The notes under the pieces: generated by a model
The model's input: the letters and a program-made list of their open reading frames with translations, nothing else
Database searches by the model: none
What the model was told of the DNA's origin: nothing
Shown: positions 16,856 to 28,010 of the stretch, one piece after another
Layout of the letters: each line of letters starts with the position of its first letter
Position numbering within the stretch: the first letter of the stretch is position 1
Position numbers and translations under genes: made by a program
Source: Candidatus Latescibacterota bacterium
GTDB taxonomy: Bacteria > Latescibacterota > UBA2968 > UBA8231
DNA: 64,000 nt
Direction of reading: 5' to 3'
NCBI GenBank assembly: GCA_965206595.1
Contig: OZ242214.1
Coordinates: 3,264,001 to 3,328,000 of the forward strand

Positions 16856-17101
16856 GGCTCGGCTTTCGCTGGGGTTGTCAGGATCGGCAGAATCAAACAG
16901 GAAAGCCGCGGGCAACAAAGTTTTCACCCGGGACCTGCAGGGACGGGAGTGCGGGCCGCGAAGGCTACAAATGCGTTACGGCAGCCACGCATTGCCGGAT
17001 CATTGCCGAACTTTAGTGGCGATGACGAACACGCGAACGGACGCGAGCTACGCTACGAGGGAGGGTGAGGGCTGCTATTCTGGATGCCGCGGCGCGGCTC
17101 G

Positions 17102-17320
17102 CTATGGCTGCCGCTCAACTCGACAAAGATCCGCCGCATAGCGGACCGCGGCTTGGACGGATTCGCGGGTGATCGACGGGTAGCTGCTTGTGATTTTCTC
17201 CGGGTTCAAATCTGCCGCGAGGTTGTCGAGAACCGTGGACACCAGCACGCGGGTGCCCGTGATGCAGGCCTTTCCATGGCAGACTTCCGGGTCGACGGTT
17301 ATGTAGTCCCGCCAGTTCAT
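17102..17320 (-). CDS. DUF433-family antitoxin-like protein
   Basis: [39 protein letters not shown]; its ATG overlaps the hsdR stop (ATGA). Confidence 0.88.
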
Positions 17321-20300
17321 GGCTCCCCGAGCACTTCCAGGAACTCGGCAATCACTTGAAGGTCTCCTTCATCCGTACCGGTCAGGACGATAGGCTCAAA
17401 GTCCGGGTTTACGGGCTTCAAAGTGATTTTCGAATGACGCCACGAATCCCCTTCCACTACCCTTTCACTTTCGTAACGCTTGACGGTGTAACGCTGGCTG
17501 GTCTCAGGATCGATTTGGTCTCGGAGCTCGACGAGGACGGTCTTGCCCTGCCGGCTTCCTTCAACCGGGGCGCGGAAGAGACACCAGGAACCGTCCGGGA
17601 TCGCAGGCTCCATGGACCTGCCGACGACCTGGGCGGCGAACATCCCTCGTCTCAACTGGTGCCGTGATTCCACGGCCACCCACTCGAAACCATCCTCCTC
17701 GATGTGCCGGGGCTCACCAAATGCCCCCGCTGCGGCCTTGAGCGGAACGAGCGGCACACAGCTCACGTAACGCTCCTCTGAACGGCCTTCCACCACGCGC
17801 AGTCCCGCCGGGAAGGCCTGCTCCGTGGGCAGTTCGTCCGATGCGGCCTGATCGGTCCGCAGCCTTCGATAAGCTTCGGAAGCCATCCAACTGGTGACGA
17901 TCCGCTGGAAGGAGGAGTCGTTCATGTAGCGGACGAAGATCTCCTCGTTCTGGTCCATGCGTTCGACGAAGATCCGCTCCAGAAGATTCCTGAACACCAG
18001 CTCGAATTTGTCCTCCGGGTTCACCGCGGCTGCCTGACGCAGTCCGTCGTCGCTCATCGCCGCCTCGACGATCTGGTCGAAGAAGAGCTGGTCCGCCTGG
18101 TTGAAGTCGGTACCGAAGCGCTCGTTGACAACGTCAATAAGCTGAGAAAGCGGCAACGCCTCCTCGTGTGCAGCGCCGCTGCCGACCTCGGTTGGCCCAT
18201 CCAGAGCGTGCGTGTCCCCCCCGGCGAGGGAGATCGAACCCTCACTGATCTTCTGCAGGCGGTAGTACTCGAGCCGGACCTCGTCATCGAACTGATAGGC
18301 GGGACCGCTCCGGCGCCGTGGCAGCTTGGCCGCCAGATGGCGCAGGAACACGTACAGGCGCTCGAGGTCCGAATCCTGGTACGGGATGATCTGACTCAGG
18401 AAGCCGTACAGGTTGCGGAACGCCTGAGCCTTTCCGCGCCAGAGCTCCGCTTGGTTCTCGTCCTCTCTCTGTAGATCCTCGAAACGGGAAACCGCCGGAT
18501 CGAGAGCTGCGTTCATCGTCTGGTGGTCCTGAGTGCTTTGCCGTTGCTTCGGCTTGAAGTACACGGCACAGAACCGCTCGACCTCTTCATCGAGATAGAT
18601 CCCTGAAGCGTCGAGCTCACCCTTGACCGCGTACATGCGGGCGGGATCCACTTCTTCCCCCATCTCCGTCCCTTCGTAGTAGACCTTGAACGCTTCGCGG
18701 ATCTCTTCGGGGTCGTTTACGAAGTCGAGGACGAAGGTGTCTTCCTTGAGGGGGTGGGTGCGGTTGAGTCGCGACAGCGTCTGCACCGCCTGGATGCCGG
18801 CAAGCCGCTTGTCCACGTACATCGTGTGCAGAAGCGGCTGATCGAACCCGGTCTGGTATTTCTCCGCGACGAGCAGCACCTGGTACTCCTGCGTCGCGAA
18901 CTTTTCCGGAAGCTCTTTCTGCCGAATCCCGGCGTTCATCTTTTCTTCGGTGTACTCAACGTCCGGAAGCTTGTCGTCCTGAACCGTTCCCGAGAAGGCG
19001 ACCAGGGTTTTGATGGCGTATCCCTTCTCCTGGATGTAGCGATCAAAGCTCTGCTTGTAGCGCACGGCCTCCAGACGGGAACCGGTGACGACCATGGCTT
19101 TCGCGCGTCCGCCGATCTTGTGCCGGGTGAATGCCTGGAAGTGCTCGACCATCACCTCGGTTTTCTGCGCGATGTTGTGGGGATGCAGGCGCAGAAAGCG
19201 CGCCAGCGCGCGGGCTGCGTTCTTCCGCTCGACGTTGGGATCGTCTTCGCAGGCCTTTAACAGTTTGAAGTAGGTCGCGTACGTGGTGTAGTGCTTGAGC
19301 ACGTCGAGGATGAACTCTTCCTCTATCGCCTGCCGCATGGTGTAGCGGTGGATCGGTTCCCCGCCCCGGCCGAACACCGCCAGCGTCTTGTGTTTGGGCG
19401 TGGCGGTGAAAGCGAAGAAACTCAGGTTCGCCTGCCGTCCGCGTTTGGCCATGCTGCGGAACAGCGCCTCCTGGTCCTTGAGGCCTTCTTCCTGTGCGCG
19501 TTTACGAGCCTCTTCTTGCAGGTCTTCACCGCCGAGGACTTCCTTGAGATCCGTCGCCGTCTCCCCTCCCTGCGAGCTGTGGGCTTCGTCCACTATGACG
19601 GCGCAGCGTTTAGTGGGAAGTACACCTGTACTCTCAACGCCCTGCTCCTTGGCCATCTTGAGTAAATGCCGGGAAACAAATGGGAACTTCTGCAGCGTAG
19701 TGATGATAATCGGGACGGCGTTTTCCAAGGCTTCAGCGAGCTGTCGGGATCGCTCGTCGATCTTCTGCACGACCCCGAGCTTGTGCTCGAACTGGTAGAT
19801 CGTGTCCTGCAGTTGCTGGTCCAGCACAACCCGGTCAGTCACCACGATCACGCTGTCGAAGACGCGCTCGTTCGCCTCGTCGTGCAGGGAAGCGAGTCGG
19901 TGCGCCAGCCAGCCGATCGTGTTGCTCTTGCCGCTGCCGGCCGAATGCTCGACGAGGTAGTTGTTGCCGACCCCCTCGCGACGAGCCTTCTCCACCAGCA
20001 GACGGACGGCGTCGAGCTGGTGGTAGCGCGGGAAGATCATCGACTCGACCTTCACCTTGCGGCCATGATCATCCCGTTTCTCCTCGATTTGCAGATGGAC
20101 GAACCGGGCGAGCACATCGAGCAGGCTGTCCCGGGTGAGTACTTCCTCCCAGAGGTAGGCGGTCCGGTAGCTGCGGCCGTTCGGATCGGGCGGGTTTCCG
20201 GCCCCTCCGTCACTTCCCTTGTCCAAGGGCAGGAAGTGGGTCGCGTCGCCAGCAAGCCGCGTGGTCATGCGCACGCACTCGGTGTCGACGGCGAAGTGAA

Positions 20301-20859
20301 CGAGCGTACGTCGTTTGAACTCGAAGATCGGCTCGCGGGGATCGCGGTCGCGCCGGTACTGGTGGATCGCATCCTCCACCGTCTGCCCGGTGAGCGGGTT
20401 CTTCAGCTCAACCGTGGCGACGGGGATACCGTTCAGGCTCACTGTCAGGTCAAGCGACTTCTCCGAACGGGATGAGAAACGAAGCTGTCGCGTAAGCCCG
20501 AGCTGGTTGGCAACGTAGCGGGCTTCGAGCTCGGGGTTCAATTCATGGGCGGCTTTGAAGAACGCCACGTGAAGCGTCCGGCCGTAGCACTTGAAGCCGT
20601 GCCGAAGAGTTGCCAGCGAGCCGTTGGCGTCCATCCACTTGCACAGGTCCGTGAGAATCTGCTCGCCGGTTTGGACGCCGTGGAGCGCTTCCAGCTTTGC
20701 CCATTGCACGGGCTGGGTCTCGCGGATGAAAGCGAGGACGGTGTCGGGGAAAATTGCGTGGTCGCGGTCGAAGCCCTCTCCTGGGACGGGGACGTATCCG
20801 TTCCGAAGCAGGTGCGCTTCGATTACGGTCTCGAAGGCGGCTTCACTGGTTTGGCTCAT
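17317..20859 (-). CDS. hsdR: Type I restriction enzyme R subunit with C-terminal S24/LexA-like peptidase domain
   Basis: [17 protein letters not shown] nuclease motif; [29 protein letters not shown] and QTLSRLNR helicase motifs; C-terminal [27 protein letters not shown]. Confidence 0.95.
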
Positions 20860-20905
20860 GGCGGGCCTTCTGTTACGAATCGCGCCCGTTTAGGCCGCAG
20901 CATCT

Positions 20906-21672
20906 TCACTTCAATTTCTCGCGATGTGTCTCGACCAGAAACTCCGCTACAGCACCCGCGGCATTCACCGCAAGGCTTGCATGTCGTGGTGATGGCCGAA
21001 TGGACAAACGTCCTCCCCTGCCGTGAGAATCGGAGAGTCGATTGCGCAATGTTCCGATACCGTTCACGAGGTTCATCACGCCACCGAGGATCGCCTTGAT
21101 CGGCTCCTCCGAATGCTGGCTTGGCGCGAGGTTCAACGCCTTTGCGGCCTTCGTATACAGCTTCGGCAAGTCGTCCCTGTCGGTATATTCCAGCGAGAGA
21201 TCGTCGAGAATGTGCTTGGTCACGGCTTCCAACAGTGTCCGGGCAAGAGTGATCGCACCTTCGGGGTCGCTCGTCCTGCGCGACAATGCCTTCGACCACA
21301 CCGCGTGAACGTGCTCGTGATCAAACAACTGAAGTGCATCGGACGTGGCCGAATCGGCAGGCGAGAGGTTTTGACCTTCCAGACGGTCAACAAGAGGAGT
21401 GAAAGCCGCACTAATGATCTGTCGGCGCTCCGCGTACGTTGCAGCCTCGTTCTTAATAAATTGCCAGAAAGCATCCAGACTTCGATAGGTACGAACAAAG
21501 CCGGGAAGCAAGCTCTTGATTTCGTTATCGTTCATGAACTCCCGGCGCAAGTGCACGTAAATGTCGTCAACAAGAGAACCACCTGTCGCCGCATCAACCA
21601 GAATACCTTCCATCATCCCATCATCTTGACTCGTTCAATGGTCGAGTCTGGCAGCTCGTTCTCGTTCACCAT
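20906..21672 (-). CDS. Abortive infection (Abi-C-like, HEPN-type) protein
   Basis: DPEGAITLARTLLE..KHIL and LRNRLSDSHG motifs. The true start is probably 21672 (MVNENELPD), displaced by an 8-bp duplication at 21610-21625; the in-frame ORF runs from 21616. Confidence 0.8.
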
Positions 21673-21675
21673 TGT

Positions 21676-22162
21676 TCAACTCGCACCTTTCTGGTTTACA
21701 TAGATAAATTTGAACCATATATCGTCCAAGTGACCGAAGTCTGCATCTGTTGATAGGAGAACAGCCCCGCTTGCGTGAGCCGTCGCGGCTATCCAGAGAT
21801 CATTTTGTTTCATCGACACAGCCGGCGTTGGCGGCGGAGCATTTTGAGGAGAAAGCCACAGGCTTACCGTGGGTCCAGGCGTCAATCCGAGCGTACGCGT
21901 CCAATATCGTTCGTCTGCTGATGTCAAGCGTCGGCACCCCGTTGAGAACTTGCTCAAGGTGGGTTCTTCTGGTGCTGCCCCAACCATTCTTCTCCGCAAG
22001 CGCGAGAATTTCTCCTTGGCAGATAACGGAGGTAAAGACCATTGTTTCCGGATTTCCGAGATTGAATTCTGCGCGAGCCTGGATAGCCCACGGTGCTTCC
22101 CGGGTGAAACCGAGCAACAGGTTCGTGTCCAGGAGGAAACGTGTCATAGCCAGATCGTTCAA
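21676..22162 (-). CDS. PIN-domain (VapC-like) toxin, single-base frameshift near 21853
   Basis: LLDTN and SVICQGEI lie in ORF 21800-22162; NDLWIAATA and STDADFGHL lie in ORF 21676-21999. All four PIN acidic residues are present across the join. Confidence 0.85.
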
Positions 22163-23112
22163 TCGAGCTGAGCCAGGAGGTCCTCGATCGGTTCATCGCC
22201 AGGCCACGCGCCCGCAAGCTCAATAGGGTCGAAGGCCCCGGCTTGCTTGCGTTGTACCGGGAATAGGTCATGCGATTTCTGAATCTCTACCGATGGCATT
22301 TCCTCGAAAACACTATCTCCTTCCAGCTGACTACTGATTCGGCGAGCCTCGATGAATCGCGGCTCGCCGTTGGCCTTGAAATGCACCATCCCCTCGACAG
22401 TAGCCTGCCTACCCCATAGAGAGCGCAAAGCCTCTACGCTCAATGATGCAGCGTCCAGCCGTCCAAAGAGTGTTGACTTCCGGCTCACTAAAAGGCGAAA
22501 GCGGCCGTTGCCGTGTTTGATCTCGTCGAGCCTGCCACTTACGACGAAAGACCTTGGGGCCGGGATGTCATTCAACCGCTCTTTGATGTATTCGCAAGTA
22601 CTGTCGTCCAGCACGAATCGTCCATGGGCCGTACTCTGAGGGATCATTTCATAGCGCACACCGGCAACTCCAGCCGCTTTCCCGAACTTGAGAATCGCCT
22701 CGAGAACCGAACTATCGAAATAGTCTCCAACTGGATCGTCGGTCTGGGTCTCGTTGACCGCTTGGGCGGCTAGATCAAGTGCCGTGTCGTTCAGGCTGGG
22801 CTGCATGCTCCATGAGTCTGCTTGGGTAAACTGTTCGCAGGCAGTCTCACTAAGCTGGGGAGCTTCCACGTCAAAAATCGTGGATCCGGATTTCAATCCG
22901 GTTACCGTGAAGTCTATGGTGGAGTCCAGCCAGTGAGGTCTCGCCCCCTTCCCGCTACCCGCGCCAGTAGCGAGCAAGCGGGTGGTCCGCTCTGCCGTCG
23001 TGAGGAGGGCGTCCAGAACACGCCGGAGAGTCGCCATCTTGATCTGACCTCCGTTTTCTCTCAGACCGCTGACGCAGAGTTGGTAGCGTTGTGTTTTCAT
23101 GGCAGGGCTCAC
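22159..23112 (-). CDS. Hypothetical protein (shared GST/OB-like module + antitoxin-like tail), partner of PIN toxin
   Basis: 317 aa with 4-nt overlaps to hsdS and the PIN gene. It aligns by eye with 24804-25931 and ends LAGAWPGDEPIEDLLAQLD. Confidence 0.75.
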   Translation of the reverse strand: MSPAMKTQRYQLCVSGLRENGGQIKMATLRRVLDALLTTAERTTRLLATGAGSGKGARPHWLDSTIDFTVTGLKSGSTIFDVEAPQLSETACEQFTQADSWSMQPSLNDTALDLAAQAVNETQTDDPVGDYFDSSVLEAILKFGKAAGVAGVRYEMIPQSTAHGRFVLDDSTCEYIKERLNDIPAPRSFVVSGRLDEIKHGNGRFRLLVSRKSTLFGRLDAASLSVEALRSLWGRQATVEGMVHFKANGEPRFIEARRISSQLEGDSVFEEMPSVEIQKSHDLFPVQRKQAGAFDPIELAGAWPGDEPIEDLLAQLD

Positions 23113-24314
23113 TTTCCTGAGTTGCTGAGCGATGGCGCATGTTGCACAGCTTCGCCGTTTCTCATCTCGATCTTGCCAGTAACAGCAGCCGCGATGAGGG
23201 CGGCGCGGCGCTCCTTGAGGAGAGCAACCGTGCTTTCCGTCGATTCCCTCAGTTCCTCGAGTCTCTTCGCCTCGAATGCAATTTGCTCGACAATCTCCGC
23301 CTGCTCTTGGACGGGAGGCAATGGAACTTCAATGTCGCGGAAGCCTGTCCAATAGAGACGCAACCTATCCCACACGATTCCGTGGGAGTGGCGCGCACAC
23401 TCCGCACTGAAAGCAGCAGTTTGAAAGAGTCTTTTTGCGTACGCTGAAGACAAAAGCCCGACGGGTTCCGCAACCACATAGTCCGGACTCACTAGGCCGT
23501 CCTCAGGGGCTATGCCAACTGCCCCTTGCCACATCCGCATCTTGTTGAACACCACATCACCTTGGCGAGCAACTTTATACGTGTTGAAATCGGCTGCTGT
23601 GCTCTCGATTCGTTCCTCGGAAAATTCACGCAAGATGACACCATGGTTGATCGAAACTTCCAACAGCGGAAGATCCGGCTCCCCTCGTTCGTCACGCTCG
23701 CTGAATAGCCAGGCTACCCGCCGCGTCTTCCAATGTGCAGGAATCACACCAAGCCAGGGGATGCCGGAATCGCGGAGCGGCAGGGCAGGGTCGAGGCCAC
23801 AGGTAACGGCACGGGTTATGAGAGCACGGCGCTTCTCGGCCAGCAGGTCCAGCAACTGCTCCTTCTCTGCTACCAGTTCATCCAGCCGCGCCGTCTCGCG
23901 GTCGAGGTAGCTGGCAATGGTGCGTTGCTGGGACAGAGGTGGGACAAACACCTCTCTGGCGTAGGCGGTTTCACGATTGAGGCCCGGAACTGCTGCTTCG
24001 TCCGTTCCTTCATCAAGTCGCAAAGTTTGAAGGAGCCAGTAGAGCCAGCGCAAATGGTTCCTGCTAACCGATTCGTCAATGAAGAAGGTCGTATCAGAAG
24101 CGAAGCACGGTTCCGCAGTCCAGTTGACCTTGCCATAAGAGCCTTTTCGCCCAATGATGATCGCTGGCGCTCCGGTGTTAGTCCTTGAGAAAGAAGCAAA
24201 TGGTCCGTTGGAGCCAAACACACGAAAGGTGCCATCAAGTGGCTCGTCACTCGGCAGAGCGTCGCCGTAGCCTAAACGAGCGACAAATTTCAGCTTTGCC
24301 CTCGGCCACATCAC
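23109..24314 (-). CDS. hsdS: Type I restriction-modification specificity subunit
   Basis: Two TRDs and the conserved helices VPPLSQQRTIASYLD..KRRALITRAVT.GL..DSGIPWLG.IP.HW and LPPVQEQ..LLKERRAALIAAAVTGKI. Confidence 0.95.
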   Translation of the reverse strand: MMWPRAKLKFVARLGYGDALPSDEPLDGTFRVFGSNGPFASFSRTNTGAPAIIIGRKGSYGKVNWTAEPCFASDTTFFIDESVSRNHLRWLYWLLQTLRLDEGTDEAAVPGLNRETAYAREVFVPPLSQQRTIASYLDRETARLDELVAEKEQLLDLLAEKRRALITRAVTCGLDPALPLRDSGIPWLGVIPAHWKTRRVAWLFSERDERGEPDLPLLEVSINHGVILREFSEERIESTAADFNTYKVARQGDVVFNKMRMWQGAVGIAPEDGLVSPDYVVAEPVGLLSSAYAKRLFQTAAFSAECARHSHGIVWDRLRLYWTGFRDIEVPLPPVQEQAEIVEQIAFEAKRLEELRESTESTVALLKERRAALIAAAVTGKIEMRNGEAVQHAPSLSNSGK

Positions 24315-24430
24315 TGCATCACCTCCTGCAACAGCCGCAAGATCGTTTTCTCCACTTTTCCAGAGCCCCCATCGGCCTGGGGCTCCGATCTGGTCGAGAC
24401 TTCTGATCGTCTACTTCGATCGTACACCAT
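24311..24430 (-). other. 39-codon mini-ORF / relic of an hsdM 3' end
   Basis: MVYDRSRRSEVSTRSEPQADGGSGKVEKTILRLLQEVMQ*. The tail resembles the HsdM end AEEKIMRLLREVTS*, and there are TGATG overlaps at both ends. Confidence 0.6.
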
Positions 24431-24807
24431 CAGCCAGGGTCAACGCGATACTGCCAGCCGCGAAGCACCGCGGCACGCGTCAAGTATTTCGCCTTCGTCT
24501 TGATGTCCGCGTTGGAGCAATCGCGGAAGTCGATCACTACGTGTTCTGGAAACGGCTCCGGATCAGGCGTTACAGGCAGCTCCTGTTTTCCGCATTCTGC
24601 TACGGTCAAGGCCATGACGCCAACCGATGTCAGGCCCAATTTATGGGTGTAGTGGCAATACGCCTGCTGAGCCGTCATCTGGTCTCCGTCGTAAACGGAG
24701 AGTTTCCCTTGGTCCTTTGCCGTCGGTTTGAACGCCTGGGAGGTGACTCTTCCTTCTCGAATCCAACCTGGGTTCACCTGTCGTAGCAGCAAGGTGTCCA
24801 GTGTCAT
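24430..24807 (-). CDS. Small putative toxin, ADP-ribosyltransferase/RES-like motif pattern
   Basis: 125 aa, with an ATG overlapping the upstream stop. LLRQV..TSQAF..LSVYD..GV..PEHVVI matches the R..S..H pattern of ART-like folds (inference). Confidence 0.55.
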   Translation of the reverse strand: MTLDTLLLRQVNPGWIREGRVTSQAFKPTAKDQGKLSVYDGDQMTAQQAYCHYTHKLGLTSVGVMALTVAECGKQELPVTPDPEPFPEHVVIDFRDCSNADIKTKAKYLTRAAVLRGWQYRVDPG

Positions 24808-25931
24808 ACACGGCCCGAAGTCATGGCCTCGATCTGGTCGACCAGCCACTTCCAGTCATCGCCAGCGTCACAATTCAACGTGCGCTCGGAAGCGACGTTG
24901 GACACCATGTTGAGCGCGTGCCATTCGCCGGAACGGGTTTCGAGATTCACATCGAACGTGACCTCGTTCGGGCCGAGGGACCATTCAGCTTGAACGCCTC
25001 CCGATTCCGTTGGGTAGAGGTGTGGCAACGGCGCCTCATCGGAAAAGTGCCGGTCGAAGGCGTCGTTCAGCCAATCGAGGCCCGCGCTTGGTGGGGCAAG
25101 TCCCTCTCCTTCGAGCCAGCCGTTCTGCAATAGGCGCAGGTCGTCGAGTTGCGCGCCGACATCCAAAGCGTCGAGAATGCTCAGATGTTCAATTGTATCG
25201 AAATCGATAAACTGATCACCGCGACTGAAACGTCCGATGCCCTGGAACAACGCGCGAATTCCGTTCTGGTATCCCTTGAACGCTTCGAGGATAGTGTCGA
25301 GGTGCTGCGAGGCAATCGGAGCTTTGACCTTGCTGCCGTCTATCAACTGAATCTGGAAGCTCATGTCGTCCTGGTCAGCCTCGGGCACTGTACCTCGAAT
25401 CGAAACTTCCTCGGTCAGTTCCTTCACTTTGGGCGACGCAAGGACCAAGCGTCGTCGGATGTCCCTGGTGAGCTTGGCCGTGATTTTGTTGTCAGGATCA
25501 TCGAATAAAACCGCTTCACCCTCCTTCAGGCTTCGCCCTAGCTTGTCGAAGTAGCCCAGCGTCCCCTCCGGCAGATGCGGCTCGATGGGACGTTCGTGTT
25601 CCGCTGCACTGATAGCTTGGATGATCGCGTCGCGCGCGTAACCGGAATAGGTCTGGCTGACTGTCGGAAGCAAGGTCGGCGGTTCCGAGGCCATTCGGAT
25701 GTCCAGGGATGTACTGCCAGGACTGATCGCGGCGAGCCCCAATTGGATGTTCTTCGTGAAGCCACGGGGTGACCGCTGACGATTCGGGTGATCCGTGAGG
25801 AATTTGGCCTTGGCGACTTCAACGACCATTTCTTCCAGCACCGCGACATCTTTCAAGAATTCCAGCGGGACGGAGTGGTCATCGTAGCGCGCTCCGACGA
25901 GACGCAAGCGCATGAAGGGTTCCGTGCTCAT
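24804..25931 (-). CDS. Hypothetical protein (shared GST/OB-like module + distinct C-terminal domain), partner of ART-like gene
   Basis: 375 aa with ATGA overlaps to hsdM and the downstream gene. C-terminal domain: LDDLRLLQNGWLEGEG..PHLYPTESGGVQAEW. Confidence 0.75.
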   Translation of the reverse strand: MSTEPFMRLRLVGARYDDHSVPLEFLKDVAVLEEMVVEVAKAKFLTDHPNRQRSPRGFTKNIQLGLAAISPGSTSLDIRMASEPPTLLPTVSQTYSGYARDAIIQAISAAEHERPIEPHLPEGTLGYFDKLGRSLKEGEAVLFDDPDNKITAKLTRDIRRRLVLASPKVKELTEEVSIRGTVPEADQDDMSFQIQLIDGSKVKAPIASQHLDTILEAFKGYQNGIRALFQGIGRFSRGDQFIDFDTIEHLSILDALDVGAQLDDLRLLQNGWLEGEGLAPPSAGLDWLNDAFDRHFSDEAPLPHLYPTESGGVQAEWSLGPNEVTFDVNLETRSGEWHALNMVSNVASERTLNCDAGDDWKWLVDQIEAMTSGRV

Positions 25932-27913
25932 GAAGTCACCTCCCGCAACAGGCGCATGATCTTCTCCTCTGCCTCCTTCAAATCCGCGTCGATCTCCTCC
26001 AGCGGTCGTGGCGGTGTGTACTTGTAGAAGTGGCGATTGAAGTTGATCTCGTAGCCGACCTTGTCCTTGCCGCGGTCCATCCAGGCGTCGGGAACGTGGG
26101 GGGCTACCTCCCGTTTGAAGTAGGCGTCGACGTTGTCTTTAAGCGGCACGTTCTCGAAGTCGCGCAGCTTGGTGTCGGGCTCGCAGCCTTTCTCCCGGCC
26201 ATCCTTCCTTACCCGCTCGGCCTGCGGGTCCTTCTCGGTGAAGACATCCCGGAAGAGATTCTGTTCCGCCTTCTTCCAGCGCGATTGACGCTTATGCAAA
26301 AGAGCCACAATTCTCCCCCATGCCGCATTCCAGTCGTGCTCCGGCTCTCGCCCCAACTCTTTGTCGATGGCCTGCACATCGTCGAGCAGATACGGGCAGG
26401 CATCGAGGAAGCGGGCCTTGTCTTCTATGGTCATCTGGTAGCGCAAGCGCAGGGGGCGCTCCACGGTCACGCGTGTGTACCCGAAGTCGGCGTTGTCGAA
26501 GACTCTGGAGCGTTCGCCGTCCTCGAAGCGGCCGTACAGCCGCACGATCTCCTCGATCTGCCCTGAGGTAAGGTGGCGGCGCTTGTCGCCAAGGCTGCGC
26601 TTGTTGTCTTCGCTTCCCCCCGCGGTCCACAGGTCGCGGGCGTCGAGGAGCTGTATCCGCCCCTGCCGGCGCTCCTCCTTGCGGTTGGTGACGATCCAGA
26701 CGTAGGTGCCGATTCCGGTGTTGTAGAACATCTGCTCGGGCAGGGCGATGATGGCTTCGAGCCAGTCGTTCTCGATGATCCACTTGCGAATGTCGCTCTC
26801 CCCGGACCCGGAGCCTCCGGTGAAAAGCGGCGAGCCGCTGAACACGATGGCGAGCCGCGAGCCGTGTTTGTGTTTCCGCGGCCGCACCGGTTCCCGCTTG
26901 TGCCACATGTGCTGCAGGAAGAGCAGCGAGCCGTCGTTCACGCGCGGAAGCCCTGCCCCGAAACGGCCCTCGAATCCGAGCTTGTCGTGCTCGCGCTGGA
27001 CCTCATTCTTCTGCCTCTTCCAGTCCACGCCGAAGGGAGGATTGGTGAGGAAGTAGTCGAAGGTCTCGCCCTCGAACCGGTCCTCGGTCAAGCTGTCGCC
27101 GAAGCGGACGTTGTCTCCGCCGCCGTTGTGGTCGACCTGCTTCATCAGCATGTCGGAGGCCGCGGTGGCGAAAGCGCGGTTGTTGTAGTCCTGCCCGTAG
27201 ACGTAGAGCCGTGCCGCATCGTGGTGGTCTCGCAGGTAGTTCTGCGCTTCGGCCAGCATGCCGCCCGTTCCGCAGGCGGGGTCGAGGAGCTTGCGCACGG
27301 TTCCGGGTGTGGCGAGCAGTTGGTCGTCCTGAATTAAGAGGATGCTCACCATCAGCCGGATGACCTCTCGCGGCGTGAAGTGGTCGCCCGCGGTCTCGTT
27401 CGCCAGTTCGTTGAAGCGGCGGATGAGATTTTCGAAGAGGAGTCCCATCTGCTCGTTCGGGAACCTGTCGGGGTGCAGGTCCACGTCGCAGAACTTCGAG
27501 ACGACGAGGTACAGGATATTGCTCTCCTGCATCTTCTCGATCTCGCTCTCGAACTCGAAGAACTCGAAGATGTCGCGCACGTTGGCCGAAAAGCCCTGGA
27601 TATAGCTGACGAGGTGCGGGGCAATGTTGTCCGGATCTCCCTTGAGCTTGTCGAAATCGAGGTCTGAGTGGTTGTGGAAGCGCTGGCCCGCGGCCCTGTT
27701 CAGCCTGGCGTCGAGCGCTTCGCCGTCGAGTCTGCCGCGCCAGCGATCATATTCGGACAGGACCTTTGGCTTGCTCGGCGCGAGCACGCAGTCGAACCGC
27801 CGCAGCACGGTCATGGGCAGCATGACGCGCTCGTACTGCGGCGGGCGGTAGGGACCGCGCAGCAGGTCGGCGATCTGCCAGATCAGGCTGGCGAAGTAGC
27901 TGTGGTCAGGCAT
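25928..27913 (-). CDS. hsdM: Type I restriction-modification N6-adenine methyltransferase
   Basis: IWQIADLLRG, FTPREVI, DPACGTGGML (motif I), NPPFG (motif IV), FYNTGI and VGYEINF motifs. Confidence 0.96.
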   Translation of the reverse strand: MPDHSYFASLIWQIADLLRGPYRPPQYERVMLPMTVLRRFDCVLAPSKPKVLSEYDRWRGRLDGEALDARLNRAAGQRFHNHSDLDFDKLKGDPDNIAPHLVSYIQGFSANVRDIFEFFEFESEIEKMQESNILYLVVSKFCDVDLHPDRFPNEQMGLLFENLIRRFNELANETAGDHFTPREVIRLMVSILLIQDDQLLATPGTVRKLLDPACGTGGMLAEAQNYLRDHHDAARLYVYGQDYNNRAFATAASDMLMKQVDHNGGGDNVRFGDSLTEDRFEGETFDYFLTNPPFGVDWKRQKNEVQREHDKLGFEGRFGAGLPRVNDGSLLFLQHMWHKREPVRPRKHKHGSRLAIVFSGSPLFTGGSGSGESDIRKWIIENDWLEAIIALPEQMFYNTGIGTYVWIVTNRKEERRQGRIQLLDARDLWTAGGSEDNKRSLGDKRRHLTSGQIEEIVRLYGRFEDGERSRVFDNADFGYTRVTVERPLRLRYQMTIEDKARFLDACPYLLDDVQAIDKELGREPEHDWNAAWGRIVALLHKRQSRWKKAEQNLFRDVFTEKDPQAERVRKDGREKGCEPDTKLRDFENVPLKDNVDAYFKREVAPHVPDAWMDRGKDKVGYEINFNRHFYKYTPPRPLEEIDADLKEAEEKIMRLLREVTS

Positions 27914-28010
27914 GTCATCACCTTCGCGTGCTTACCGCGTCAGGGATCCCCGCGAAAACCGTCAACACTAGAAATTTACGAAACACCCTAAGCCGCGCCT
28001 CCGCCCGCCG

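Follow-up and report, generated by a model that had tools for sequence, protein, structure and literature searches.

Type II toxin–antitoxin pairs of the VapBC class consist of a PIN-domain toxin and an antitoxin of roughly 70–90 amino acids (aa), which is encoded upstream of the toxin and bears a DNA-binding domain of the AbrB, ribbon-helix-helix (RHH), helix-turn-helix (HTH) or Phd type. The Panacea (PanA) antitoxin domain pairs with many unrelated toxins. The PrrC effector of EcoprrI, which combines ABC ATPase and anticodon-nuclease domains, is encoded by a gene nested inside a type I restriction-modification (RM) operon. A locus that recalls each of these systems lies in a 64,000-nucleotide (nt) stretch of a Candidatus Latescibacterota genome (assembly GCA_965206595.1, contig OZ242214.1, positions 3,264,001 to 3,328,000), hereafter the window. 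Within it, on the minus strand, a type I RM operon contains two genes for large proteins, A and B, each followed by a small gene of a different kind: one for a 125-aa protein after A, and one for a PIN protein after B. An initial annotation of the window held that A and B share a common module with swappable antitoxin tails, that this module might guard the RM complex or detect a phage product, and that the system was its best candidate for an undescribed one.

The last of these claims stands for one cassette and falls for the other. Protein A matches the PADLOC hidden Markov model (HMM) PDC-M32A (PDLC04574) with E 1.2e-133, residues 2–371 aligning with positions 2–372 of the 376 in the model, and the 125-aa protein matches PDC-M32B (PDLC04579) with E 1.1e-52, as well as phrog_31579. 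The pair is thus the catalogued candidate PDC-M32. The B–PIN pair belongs to none of the families searched, B having no match in Pfam, NCBIfam, PADLOC or PHROGs. The PDC systems are described as untested candidates in the preprint of Payne et al. (bioRxiv 10.1101/2024.01.29.577857), where, according to section 10, PDC-M32 was first picked for its embedding in type I RM systems; the main text of that preprint, taken without its supplements, gives no mechanism or domain description for the entry. Half of the pairing is therefore already catalogued, and the evidence for the modular idea is stronger than that available to the initial annotation.

Shared core of A and B

Gene A occupies 24804–25931 and encodes 375 aa. 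The longest open reading frame (ORF) for B, 22159–23112, begins with a GTG at 23112 and encodes 317 aa; family alignments indicate the ATG at 23100 as the likely start, which gives a protein of 313 aa and an 8-nt spacer after hsdS. The resemblance between the two proteins escapes simple comparison. BLASTP of A against B yields E 0.08, which is without significance, and in the 7.05-Mb genome to which the window belongs, where each protein is present in a single copy, a HMMER profile of either family does not retrieve the other protein at E≤10. When small alignments of 16 and 17 close homologues were compared, hhalign returned a probability of 16% (E 0.0016). Diverse alignments were also compared: for A, the window protein and 125 representatives of at most 50% mutual identity (126 sequences; effective number of sequences, Neff, 5.2), and for B, the window protein and 126 further sequences (127 in total; Neff 3.5). 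With these the probability is 95.7%, with E 1e-8 and a score of 68.2, and A 8–245 is aligned with B 7–251, B being counted from the ATG at 23100. As controls, reversing the B alignment lowers the score to 11.3, and the highest score among 20 column shuffles of it is 27.3. The path passes through all four motif pairs that had been matched by eye, so that the alignment first drawn from the letters proves to be real.

The correspondence holds part by part. The N-domains of A and B match at 84% (E 7.7e-6) and their OB parts at 87% (E 4e-6), and every cross pair among these parts and the C-termini stays below 4% in hhalign; the two C-termini, compared with each other, reach 0.2%. The AlphaFold models of A and B (predicted local distance difference test, pLDDT, 90 and 81) present strands and helices in the same order. 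Under the hhalign alignment the DSSP states of these two independent models agree at 175 of 230 positions (76%), against 27–49% in 14 shifted registers. The analysis confirms that A and B have in common a core of some 245 aa, built from an N-domain and an OB fold, and that their C-termini are unrelated, as had been proposed: a folded domain in the one, a disordered linker with a helix in the other. The core spans aa 1–252 of A (25176–25931, minus strand), with the N-domain at about aa 1–135 and the OB fold at about aa 170–256, and aa 5–262 of the B ORF (22327–23100, minus strand), with an N-domain followed by the OB fold at about aa 184–266.

The OB fold occupies the same position in both models. 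It is a barrel of five strands, with a helix inserted between the third and the fourth, and it matches solved OB domains; the matches for A and B overlap heavily and include those of the single-stranded DNA-binding protein SSB, PriB, RPA, MCM and the anticodon-binding domains of aminoacyl-tRNA synthetases. A Foldseek search of the Protein Data Bank (PDB) with the whole of B returns OB-domain matches only, and a search with the whole of A returns template modelling (TM) scores of about 0.1 only, to a polo-box. In wide fold searches with both models OB matches fill the lists, and the N-domain and the C-terminal domain of A are unclassified. Neither A nor B matches Pfam or NCBIfam at E≤0.1. A function for the core may be surmised from the kind of OB fold that the models resemble.

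In the ESM Atlas the proteins fall near unnamed clusters only, with weak leads to DUF6575 (0.80) and DUF6098 (0.92). DUF6575 is the nearest Pfam-bearing cluster to B in that atlas. Three 439-aa members of the B family (P0085, P0114 and P0119) are extended at the N-terminus by about 120 aa, and this extension has a weak match to DUF6575 (E 1.4e-5), below the Pfam gathering score.

Partner genes and variable ends

Each large gene is paired, in most genomes, with its own kind of small effector gene, as the initial annotation supposed from the window. The A loci examined comprise 80 from metagenomes and 11 from IMG/VR viral contigs; the C-terminal end of A is preserved in 88 of these 91, among which 78 extend far enough downstream for a next gene to be seen. 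In 75 of these 78 loci the 125-aa gene comes directly after A, and in 58 the two genes overlap at an ATGA. The A family as a whole numbers 3561 clusters at 50% identity (exhaustive search, E≤1e-3). Among the viral records the IMG/VR class was seen for four of the 11, three being proviruses and one linear. For B, 60 loci were drawn from species-representative genomes of many phyla, 59 of them with room downstream. A PIN gene starts no more than 60 nt from the B stop in 46 of the 59; the spacer is 11 nt in 32 of these 46, and the PIN gene encodes at least 149 aa in 38. B was found in no viral contigs, none of 37 pattern matches being confirmed.

The 4-nt overlaps that were said to join both pairs into the operon fare unevenly. 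Those between hsdM and A and between A and the 125-aa gene, both ATGA, hold. The GTGA overlap of hsdS with B and the TTGA overlap of B with the PIN gene are both present in the sequence, but the family favours spacers of 8 and 11 nt at these junctions, with the ATG at 22147 as the likely PIN start.

Residues 253–375 of A (24804–25175 with the stop codon, minus strand) form a confidently folded alpha/beta domain in the AlphaFold model. Co-folding of full-length A with the 125-aa protein (24430–24807, minus strand), from alignments built for this analysis, gave an ipSAE interface score of 0.88 in all three runs, against 0.00, 0.00 and 0.01 for three controls. The runs have at least 93% of contacts in common, and the partner is modelled with pLDDT of at least 92. 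Of 80 solved complexes 58 attain the pass mark, and of 110 mismatched pairs 2 do so; for a prediction from such purpose-built alignments these counts are approximate. All confident contacts on A fall within residues 255–349, and so in the C-terminal domain only; those on the partner lie at residues 12–31, 59–60 and 100–111, on a face that carries the invariant residues P13, S23, Q24 and K31. The C-terminal element of A is predicted from this model to be the toxin-binding part.

The 125-aa protein is the putative toxin of the pair. Its invariant residues include R9, P13, S23, Q24, K31, D32, S37, S61 and H89, so that the three residues of the R..S..H pattern noticed initially are indeed conserved, as R9, S23 and H89. 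The likeness to ADP-ribosyltransferase (ART) or RES toxins that was read into this pattern finds no support. At E≤10 Pfam offers no match for the 125-aa protein, nor for the C-terminal domain of A or the tail of B, and the profile of the 125-aa family meets only chance matches among PDB sequences (E about 0.1, retroviral capsid). In hhalign the family reaches 0.3% against 25 RES sequences (PF08808) and 1.3% against six DarT sequences (PF14487), a comparison of little power since RES and DarT themselves match at just 0.1%; against PIN a profile comparison gives 5.8%.

Two sets of unusual A relatives may be mentioned here. Six members of odd length were fetched from the best 150 of the 3561 A hits, which made up the representative listing. 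Three have tails that look out of frame, two have N-terminal extensions without a Pfam match, and one (P0374, 343 aa) is a natural fusion of the A core (aa 1–274) with the C-terminal half of the 125-aa protein, the C-terminal domain of A and the N-terminal half of the partner both being deleted. In addition, standalone ORFs of 123–134 aa with 56–65% identity to A 253–375 occur at four loci (L012, 7077–7478; L014, 7115–7519; L015, 5056–5442; L057, 6586–6957), none of which has the 125-aa partner gene. The ORFs in L012, L014 and L057 come after PIN remnants, and that in L015 after an intact 157-aa PIN gene. These ORFs appear to be scars left by deletions or else orphan antidote domains. They were not accepted as a separate family; those in L012, L014 and L057 are read as scars because they follow PIN remnants and lack the partner gene.

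The variable end of B is of a different nature. In the AlphaFold model its C-terminal part (residues 263–317; 22159–22326, minus strand), which ends in the conserved tail FDPIELAGAWPGDEPIEDLLAQLD, consists of a disordered linker (278–304, pLDDT below 50) and a short helix (309–316). Conservation is concentrated around this helix: in 96 homologues the segment WPGDEPIE..LL is nearly invariant, and W303, P304, E307 and L312 are strictly so. This element would bind the PIN protein, and by analogy with VapB tails it may wrap around the ribonuclease.

The PIN gene of the window (21676–22147, minus strand) is frameshifted, as the initial annotation had recognized, and Pfam PIN matches are found on both pieces. 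Relative to the intact gene of locus L001, which is 95% identical, encodes 161 aa and matches PF01850 over residues 10–146 with E 5.4e-10, it carries an additional T in the run at 21852–21854. Contigs from sequencing runs X1 and X2, which come from one sample, contain the same frameshifted version with no difference, and contigs from run X6, of another study, lack the extra T. The agreement of the X1 and X2 contigs with the window indicates that the frameshift is real in this strain; that sample may be the source of the window itself. The frameshift in PIN already disables the B–PIN cassette of this genome. The PIN proteins of these pairs are 153–165 aa long, with an insert rich in proline, and in 36 sequences the motifs FLLDT, GE, ND.W.AATA and STD.DF show conservation of 90% or more.

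The two genes of this pair decay unequally. An intact PIN gene is accompanied by a full-length B gene in 36 of 38 loci, the two exceptions being a frameshifted B (L050) and a contig end (L059), and full-length B occurs without an intact PIN gene in 10 loci. Such an asymmetry is what would be expected of a toxin and its antidote.

Relatives and genomic setting

The modular family foreseen in the initial annotation, a common core with swappable ends, extends beyond the two cassettes of the window. Protein A matches the PADLOC HMM for PDC-M63B (E 1.5e-4) and phrog_6603 (E 1.9e-7), in both cases through its N-domain. Members of phrog_6603 in 2 of 401 sampled Pseudomonadota genomes are PDC-M63B proteins, with a PDC-M63A gene directly upstream; M63A matches Pfam DUF6932 and also pol-beta nucleotidyltransferases. 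A 70-sequence alignment of PDC-M63B aligns with A in hhalign at 96.2% (E 2.4e-9), M63B 61–288 being paired with A 3–232. No PDC-M63B was found in 168 genomes of the phylum to which the window belongs. PDC-M02B is present in 10 of the 401 Pseudomonadota genomes and aligns with A at 88% (E 3.1e-6; M02B 90–372, A 3–251). The upstream partner of M02B matches DUF4365, which the abstract of PMC10810196 describes as a nuclease domain found in short-Argonaute effectors. The core thus recurs with four kinds of partner: PIN, the 125-aa PDC-M32B, DUF6932 and DUF4365. The variable extension is C-terminal when the partner gene lies downstream and N-terminal when it lies upstream. No prior statement that PDC-M32, PDC-M63 and PDC-M02 are related was found in the searchable text of the literature, the supplementary tables of the Payne preprint aside.

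In the window all genes of the block are transcribed from the minus strand, in the order hsdM, A, the 125-aa gene, hsdS, B, PIN, an AbiJ-like gene, hsdR and a DUF433 gene. The methyltransferase gene hsdM (25928–27913, 661 aa) matches NCBIfam TIGR00497 with E 1.8e-20, the specificity subunit gene hsdS (23109–24314, 401 aa) matches Pfam Methylase_S with E 7.3e-9, and hsdR (17317–20859, 1180 aa) matches NCBIfam TIGR00348 with E 5.9e-60. The guanine-plus-cytosine (GC) fraction is 0.54–0.64 over 17000–28000, against 0.65–0.72 in the flanking windows, and this lower GC makes the block look acquired. The type I RM operon seems, then, to have been acquired horizontally, with three accessory cassettes nested inside it. 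A scan for promoters and terminators gave counts the same as in shuffled sequence, and no RNA sequencing runs containing this stretch are listed.

Several neighbouring features may be noted in their own right. The AbiJ-like gene (20906–21616, 236 aa; Pfam Abi_C, E 1.1e-22; PADLOC AbiJ, E 5.1e-22; phrog_23253) is a third embedded defence-type gene, situated between PIN and hsdR. AbiJ-like genes occur downstream of B–PIN in six loci, and a gene with AbiJ_NTD3 and Abi_C domains lies directly 5' of a PDC-M02 pair in L160. Directly 3' of another PDC-M02 pair (L168, 2627–3874) is a gene with a SIR2_2 domain, which suggests a defence-island context for PDC-M02. The last 194 aa of HsdR (17317–17901, minus strand) match the LexA/UmuD-like Peptidase_S24 domain (Pfam E 5.2e-9), and full-length relatives of 1178–1183 aa with 81–82% identity are found in L014, L057 and L058. 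The fusion to HsdR of what appears from the sequence to be a domain of self-cleaving type is unusual. The DUF433 gene (17102–17320, 72 aa; Pfam E 2.4e-22) has a 4-nt overlap with the hsdR stop; DUF433 genes also lie just 5' of B in L015, L019, L021, L040 and L042, and in L042 the DUF433 gene is followed by a 117-aa ORF.

How closely the cassettes are tied to restriction genes was judged from BLASTP with the Hsd proteins of the window against the fetched 5–6 kb flanks, a procedure that may overlook very divergent RM genes. It detected type I RM genes near 17 of the 60 B loci and 23 of the 88 A loci; hsdM upstream together with hsdS or hsdR downstream was seen in 12 A loci. The other 43 B loci and 65 A loci have no type I RM gene within 5–6 kb, many of the metagenome contigs being short, and none was found at the 11 A loci on viral contigs. 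Many B–PIN pairs have housekeeping genes as neighbours. In 11 loci the gene immediately upstream encodes an aspartyl-tRNA synthetase, and genes for dehydrogenases and malate synthase occur close by. Embedding in RM operons is frequent yet not required. Linkage is thus facultative, which speaks against any mechanism dependent on the RM complex.

Proposed mechanism and comparison with known systems

The A and B cassettes are probably, on a judgement somewhat firmer than even, toxin–antitoxin-like modules in which swappable toxin-binding ends are mounted on a core common to one superfamily. In such a module the core of about 245 aa would provide an unclassified alpha/beta N-domain and an OB fold of the type that binds nucleic acids, and a C-terminal adaptor of the large protein would hold the product of the next gene. 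The adaptor of A would be its folded 120-aa domain, clamping over the conserved face of PDC-M32B; that of B would be the disordered linker with its short conserved helix, wrapping the PIN ribonuclease in a VapB-like manner. The bound effector would be inactive, and it would be set free, with growth arrest as the outcome, if the large protein were lost, cleaved or rearranged by a ligand. We infer that the small proteins are toxic and that the tail of B neutralizes its partner; the core may serve in sensing or in autoregulation, and a part in phage defence is conceivable.

A number of points weigh against such modules. The relation between A and B is visible only by profile–profile comparison and is missed by BLASTP and HMMER. 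PDC-M63B aligns with B more weakly than with A (42%, E 2.6e-4, colinear), and M02B, represented by an alignment of eight sequences, has no hhalign match to B or to M63B. The 125-aa protein has no recognizable toxin fold or family in Pfam, NCBIfam, the PDB-sequence profile or the RES/DarT comparison, and the tail of B has no match to known antitoxin families. The co-fold score expresses the confidence of the model itself and is not a measurement. The loci were found through searches with A or B, so that counts of orphan toxins are biased, and related genomes are non-independent samples. Full-text literature searches found no experimental test of PDC-M32, and none exists for B–PIN. The sole relative to have been tested is PDC-M63AB, whose deletion in its native host E. 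coli NILS69, challenged with 10 phages, is reported to have revealed no defence (bioRxiv 10.1101/2024.12.20.629700).

It is possible, if doubtful, that the design reaches further: that the core defines a widespread superfamily of adaptor or sensor proteins which control at least four unrelated effector classes by means of swappable N- or C-terminal clamps, and that its OB fold detects a phage cue, for example single-stranded nucleic acid or a phage DNA-binding protein, that opens the clamp. Three separate PADLOC candidates and one unlisted VapC pair would then become a single new abortive-infection architecture.

It is rather unlikely that the cassettes are ordinary addiction modules with no role in phage defence, the core being a large DNA-binding, oligomerizing autorepressor in place of an AbrB, RHH or HTH domain. 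The matches of both OB folds to single-stranded DNA-binding proteins, PriB, RPA, MCM and anticodon-binding domains would be in keeping with such a role, as would the many B–PIN pairs that stand alone among housekeeping genes and the PDC-M63AB deletion without a phage phenotype. However, the 12 A loci nested within type I RM operons and the presence of A on 11 IMG/VR contigs are not what this explanation would lead one to expect, and the partner types PIN, DUF4365 and DUF6932 are domains typical of defence effectors. Moreover, the ATGA overlap at the hsdM–A junction leaves no space for a promoter belonging to A.

An arrangement in which the large protein activates a latent effector, as in Avs-like or CBASS-like systems, with the small protein harmless until a cue arrives, appears improbable. 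Two features accord with it: in PDC-M63 and PDC-M02 the gene for the effector precedes that for the core protein, whereas toxin genes usually follow those of their antitoxins, and the core is large and conserved, as is often the case for sensors. But the predicted interface of A buries the most conserved face of its partner, including S23 and Q24, which fits occlusion better than activation. The decay of the B–PIN pairs likewise speaks against activation, as an intact PIN gene almost never occurs without B and B often outlasts PIN. Remnants of A that retain little more than the C-terminal domain, moreover, persist beside intact partner genes. In L001 only A 228–375 is left, as a 150-aa ORF, and in L142 the core of A is internally deleted and an ORF for the C-terminal domain is kept; the 125-aa gene is intact at both loci.

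Least probable, and by now hardly to be expected, is the guarding of the RM complex suggested in the initial annotation, by which the core would watch the HsdM/HsdS/HsdR complex as PrrC does with EcoprrI and free the toxin once a phage anti-restriction protein disables the enzyme: both cassettes of the window do lie within one hsd operon, RM genes do flank 17 of 60 B and 23 of 88 A loci, and RM embedding was the ground on which PDC-M32 was originally chosen (section 10 of the Payne preprint), but 43 of 60 B and 65 of 88 A loci have no such gene in reach, none of the 11 viral-contig A loci has one, and B–PIN is often found among housekeeping genes.

If the cassettes are indeed toxin–antitoxin-like modules with exchangeable ends, one recognizable core would flag many two-gene cassettes as toxin–antitoxin or abortive-infection modules, and the recurrence of unrelated effectors with look-alike partners would be explained. 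The combination of core and clamp would also supply a design rule for asking about triggers. The analysis adds to the VapC partners a class without a classical antitoxin DNA-binding domain, and profile alignments show PDC-M32, PDC-M63 and PDC-M02, catalogued separately, to be related to each other.

In these cassettes, as in Panacea, one conserved module recurs with several unrelated toxin families; in A, however, it is the variable end, rather than the core, that is the predicted toxin contact in the co-fold model, and no Pfam match connects the proteins. The B pair resembles VapBC in several respects. Its PIN protein has the conserved acidic residues; the B gene lies directly upstream of PIN in the same orientation, about 11 nt away; B ends in a conserved tail attached through a disordered linker; and the toxin gene is the first to decay. 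The differences lie in the body of the antidote and in the toxin. At 313 aa, B far exceeds the 70–90 aa or so of VapB antitoxins; its body is made of the N-domain and OB fold, with no AbrB, RHH, HTH or Phd match in Pfam or NCBIfam at E≤0.1; and its PIN partner, of 153–165 aa, includes the proline-rich insert.

The nesting of effector genes within a type I RM operon is shared with PrrC, which the legend to Figure 6 of the Payne preprint (bioRxiv 10.1101/2024.01.29.577857) describes as almost exclusively embedded in type I RM systems. The proteins of the window differ in having no ABC ATPase or anticodon-nuclease match in Pfam, NCBIfam or PADLOC and in their facultative RM linkage. From PDC-M32 there is no difference to record: A and the 125-aa gene match its HMMs from end to end and are members, and their gene order, overlap and placement between hsdM and hsdS are as in the other type I RM-embedded candidates of that scheme. 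PDC-M63 and PDC-M02 resemble the cassettes of the window in having the same N-domain and OB core as A and in being two-gene cassettes with a small effector-type partner. They depart from A and B in that the extension is N-terminal, about 60 aa long in M63B and about 89 aa in M02B, and in that the partner gene stands upstream and encodes a protein of nucleotidyltransferase fold or of DUF4365 nuclease type.

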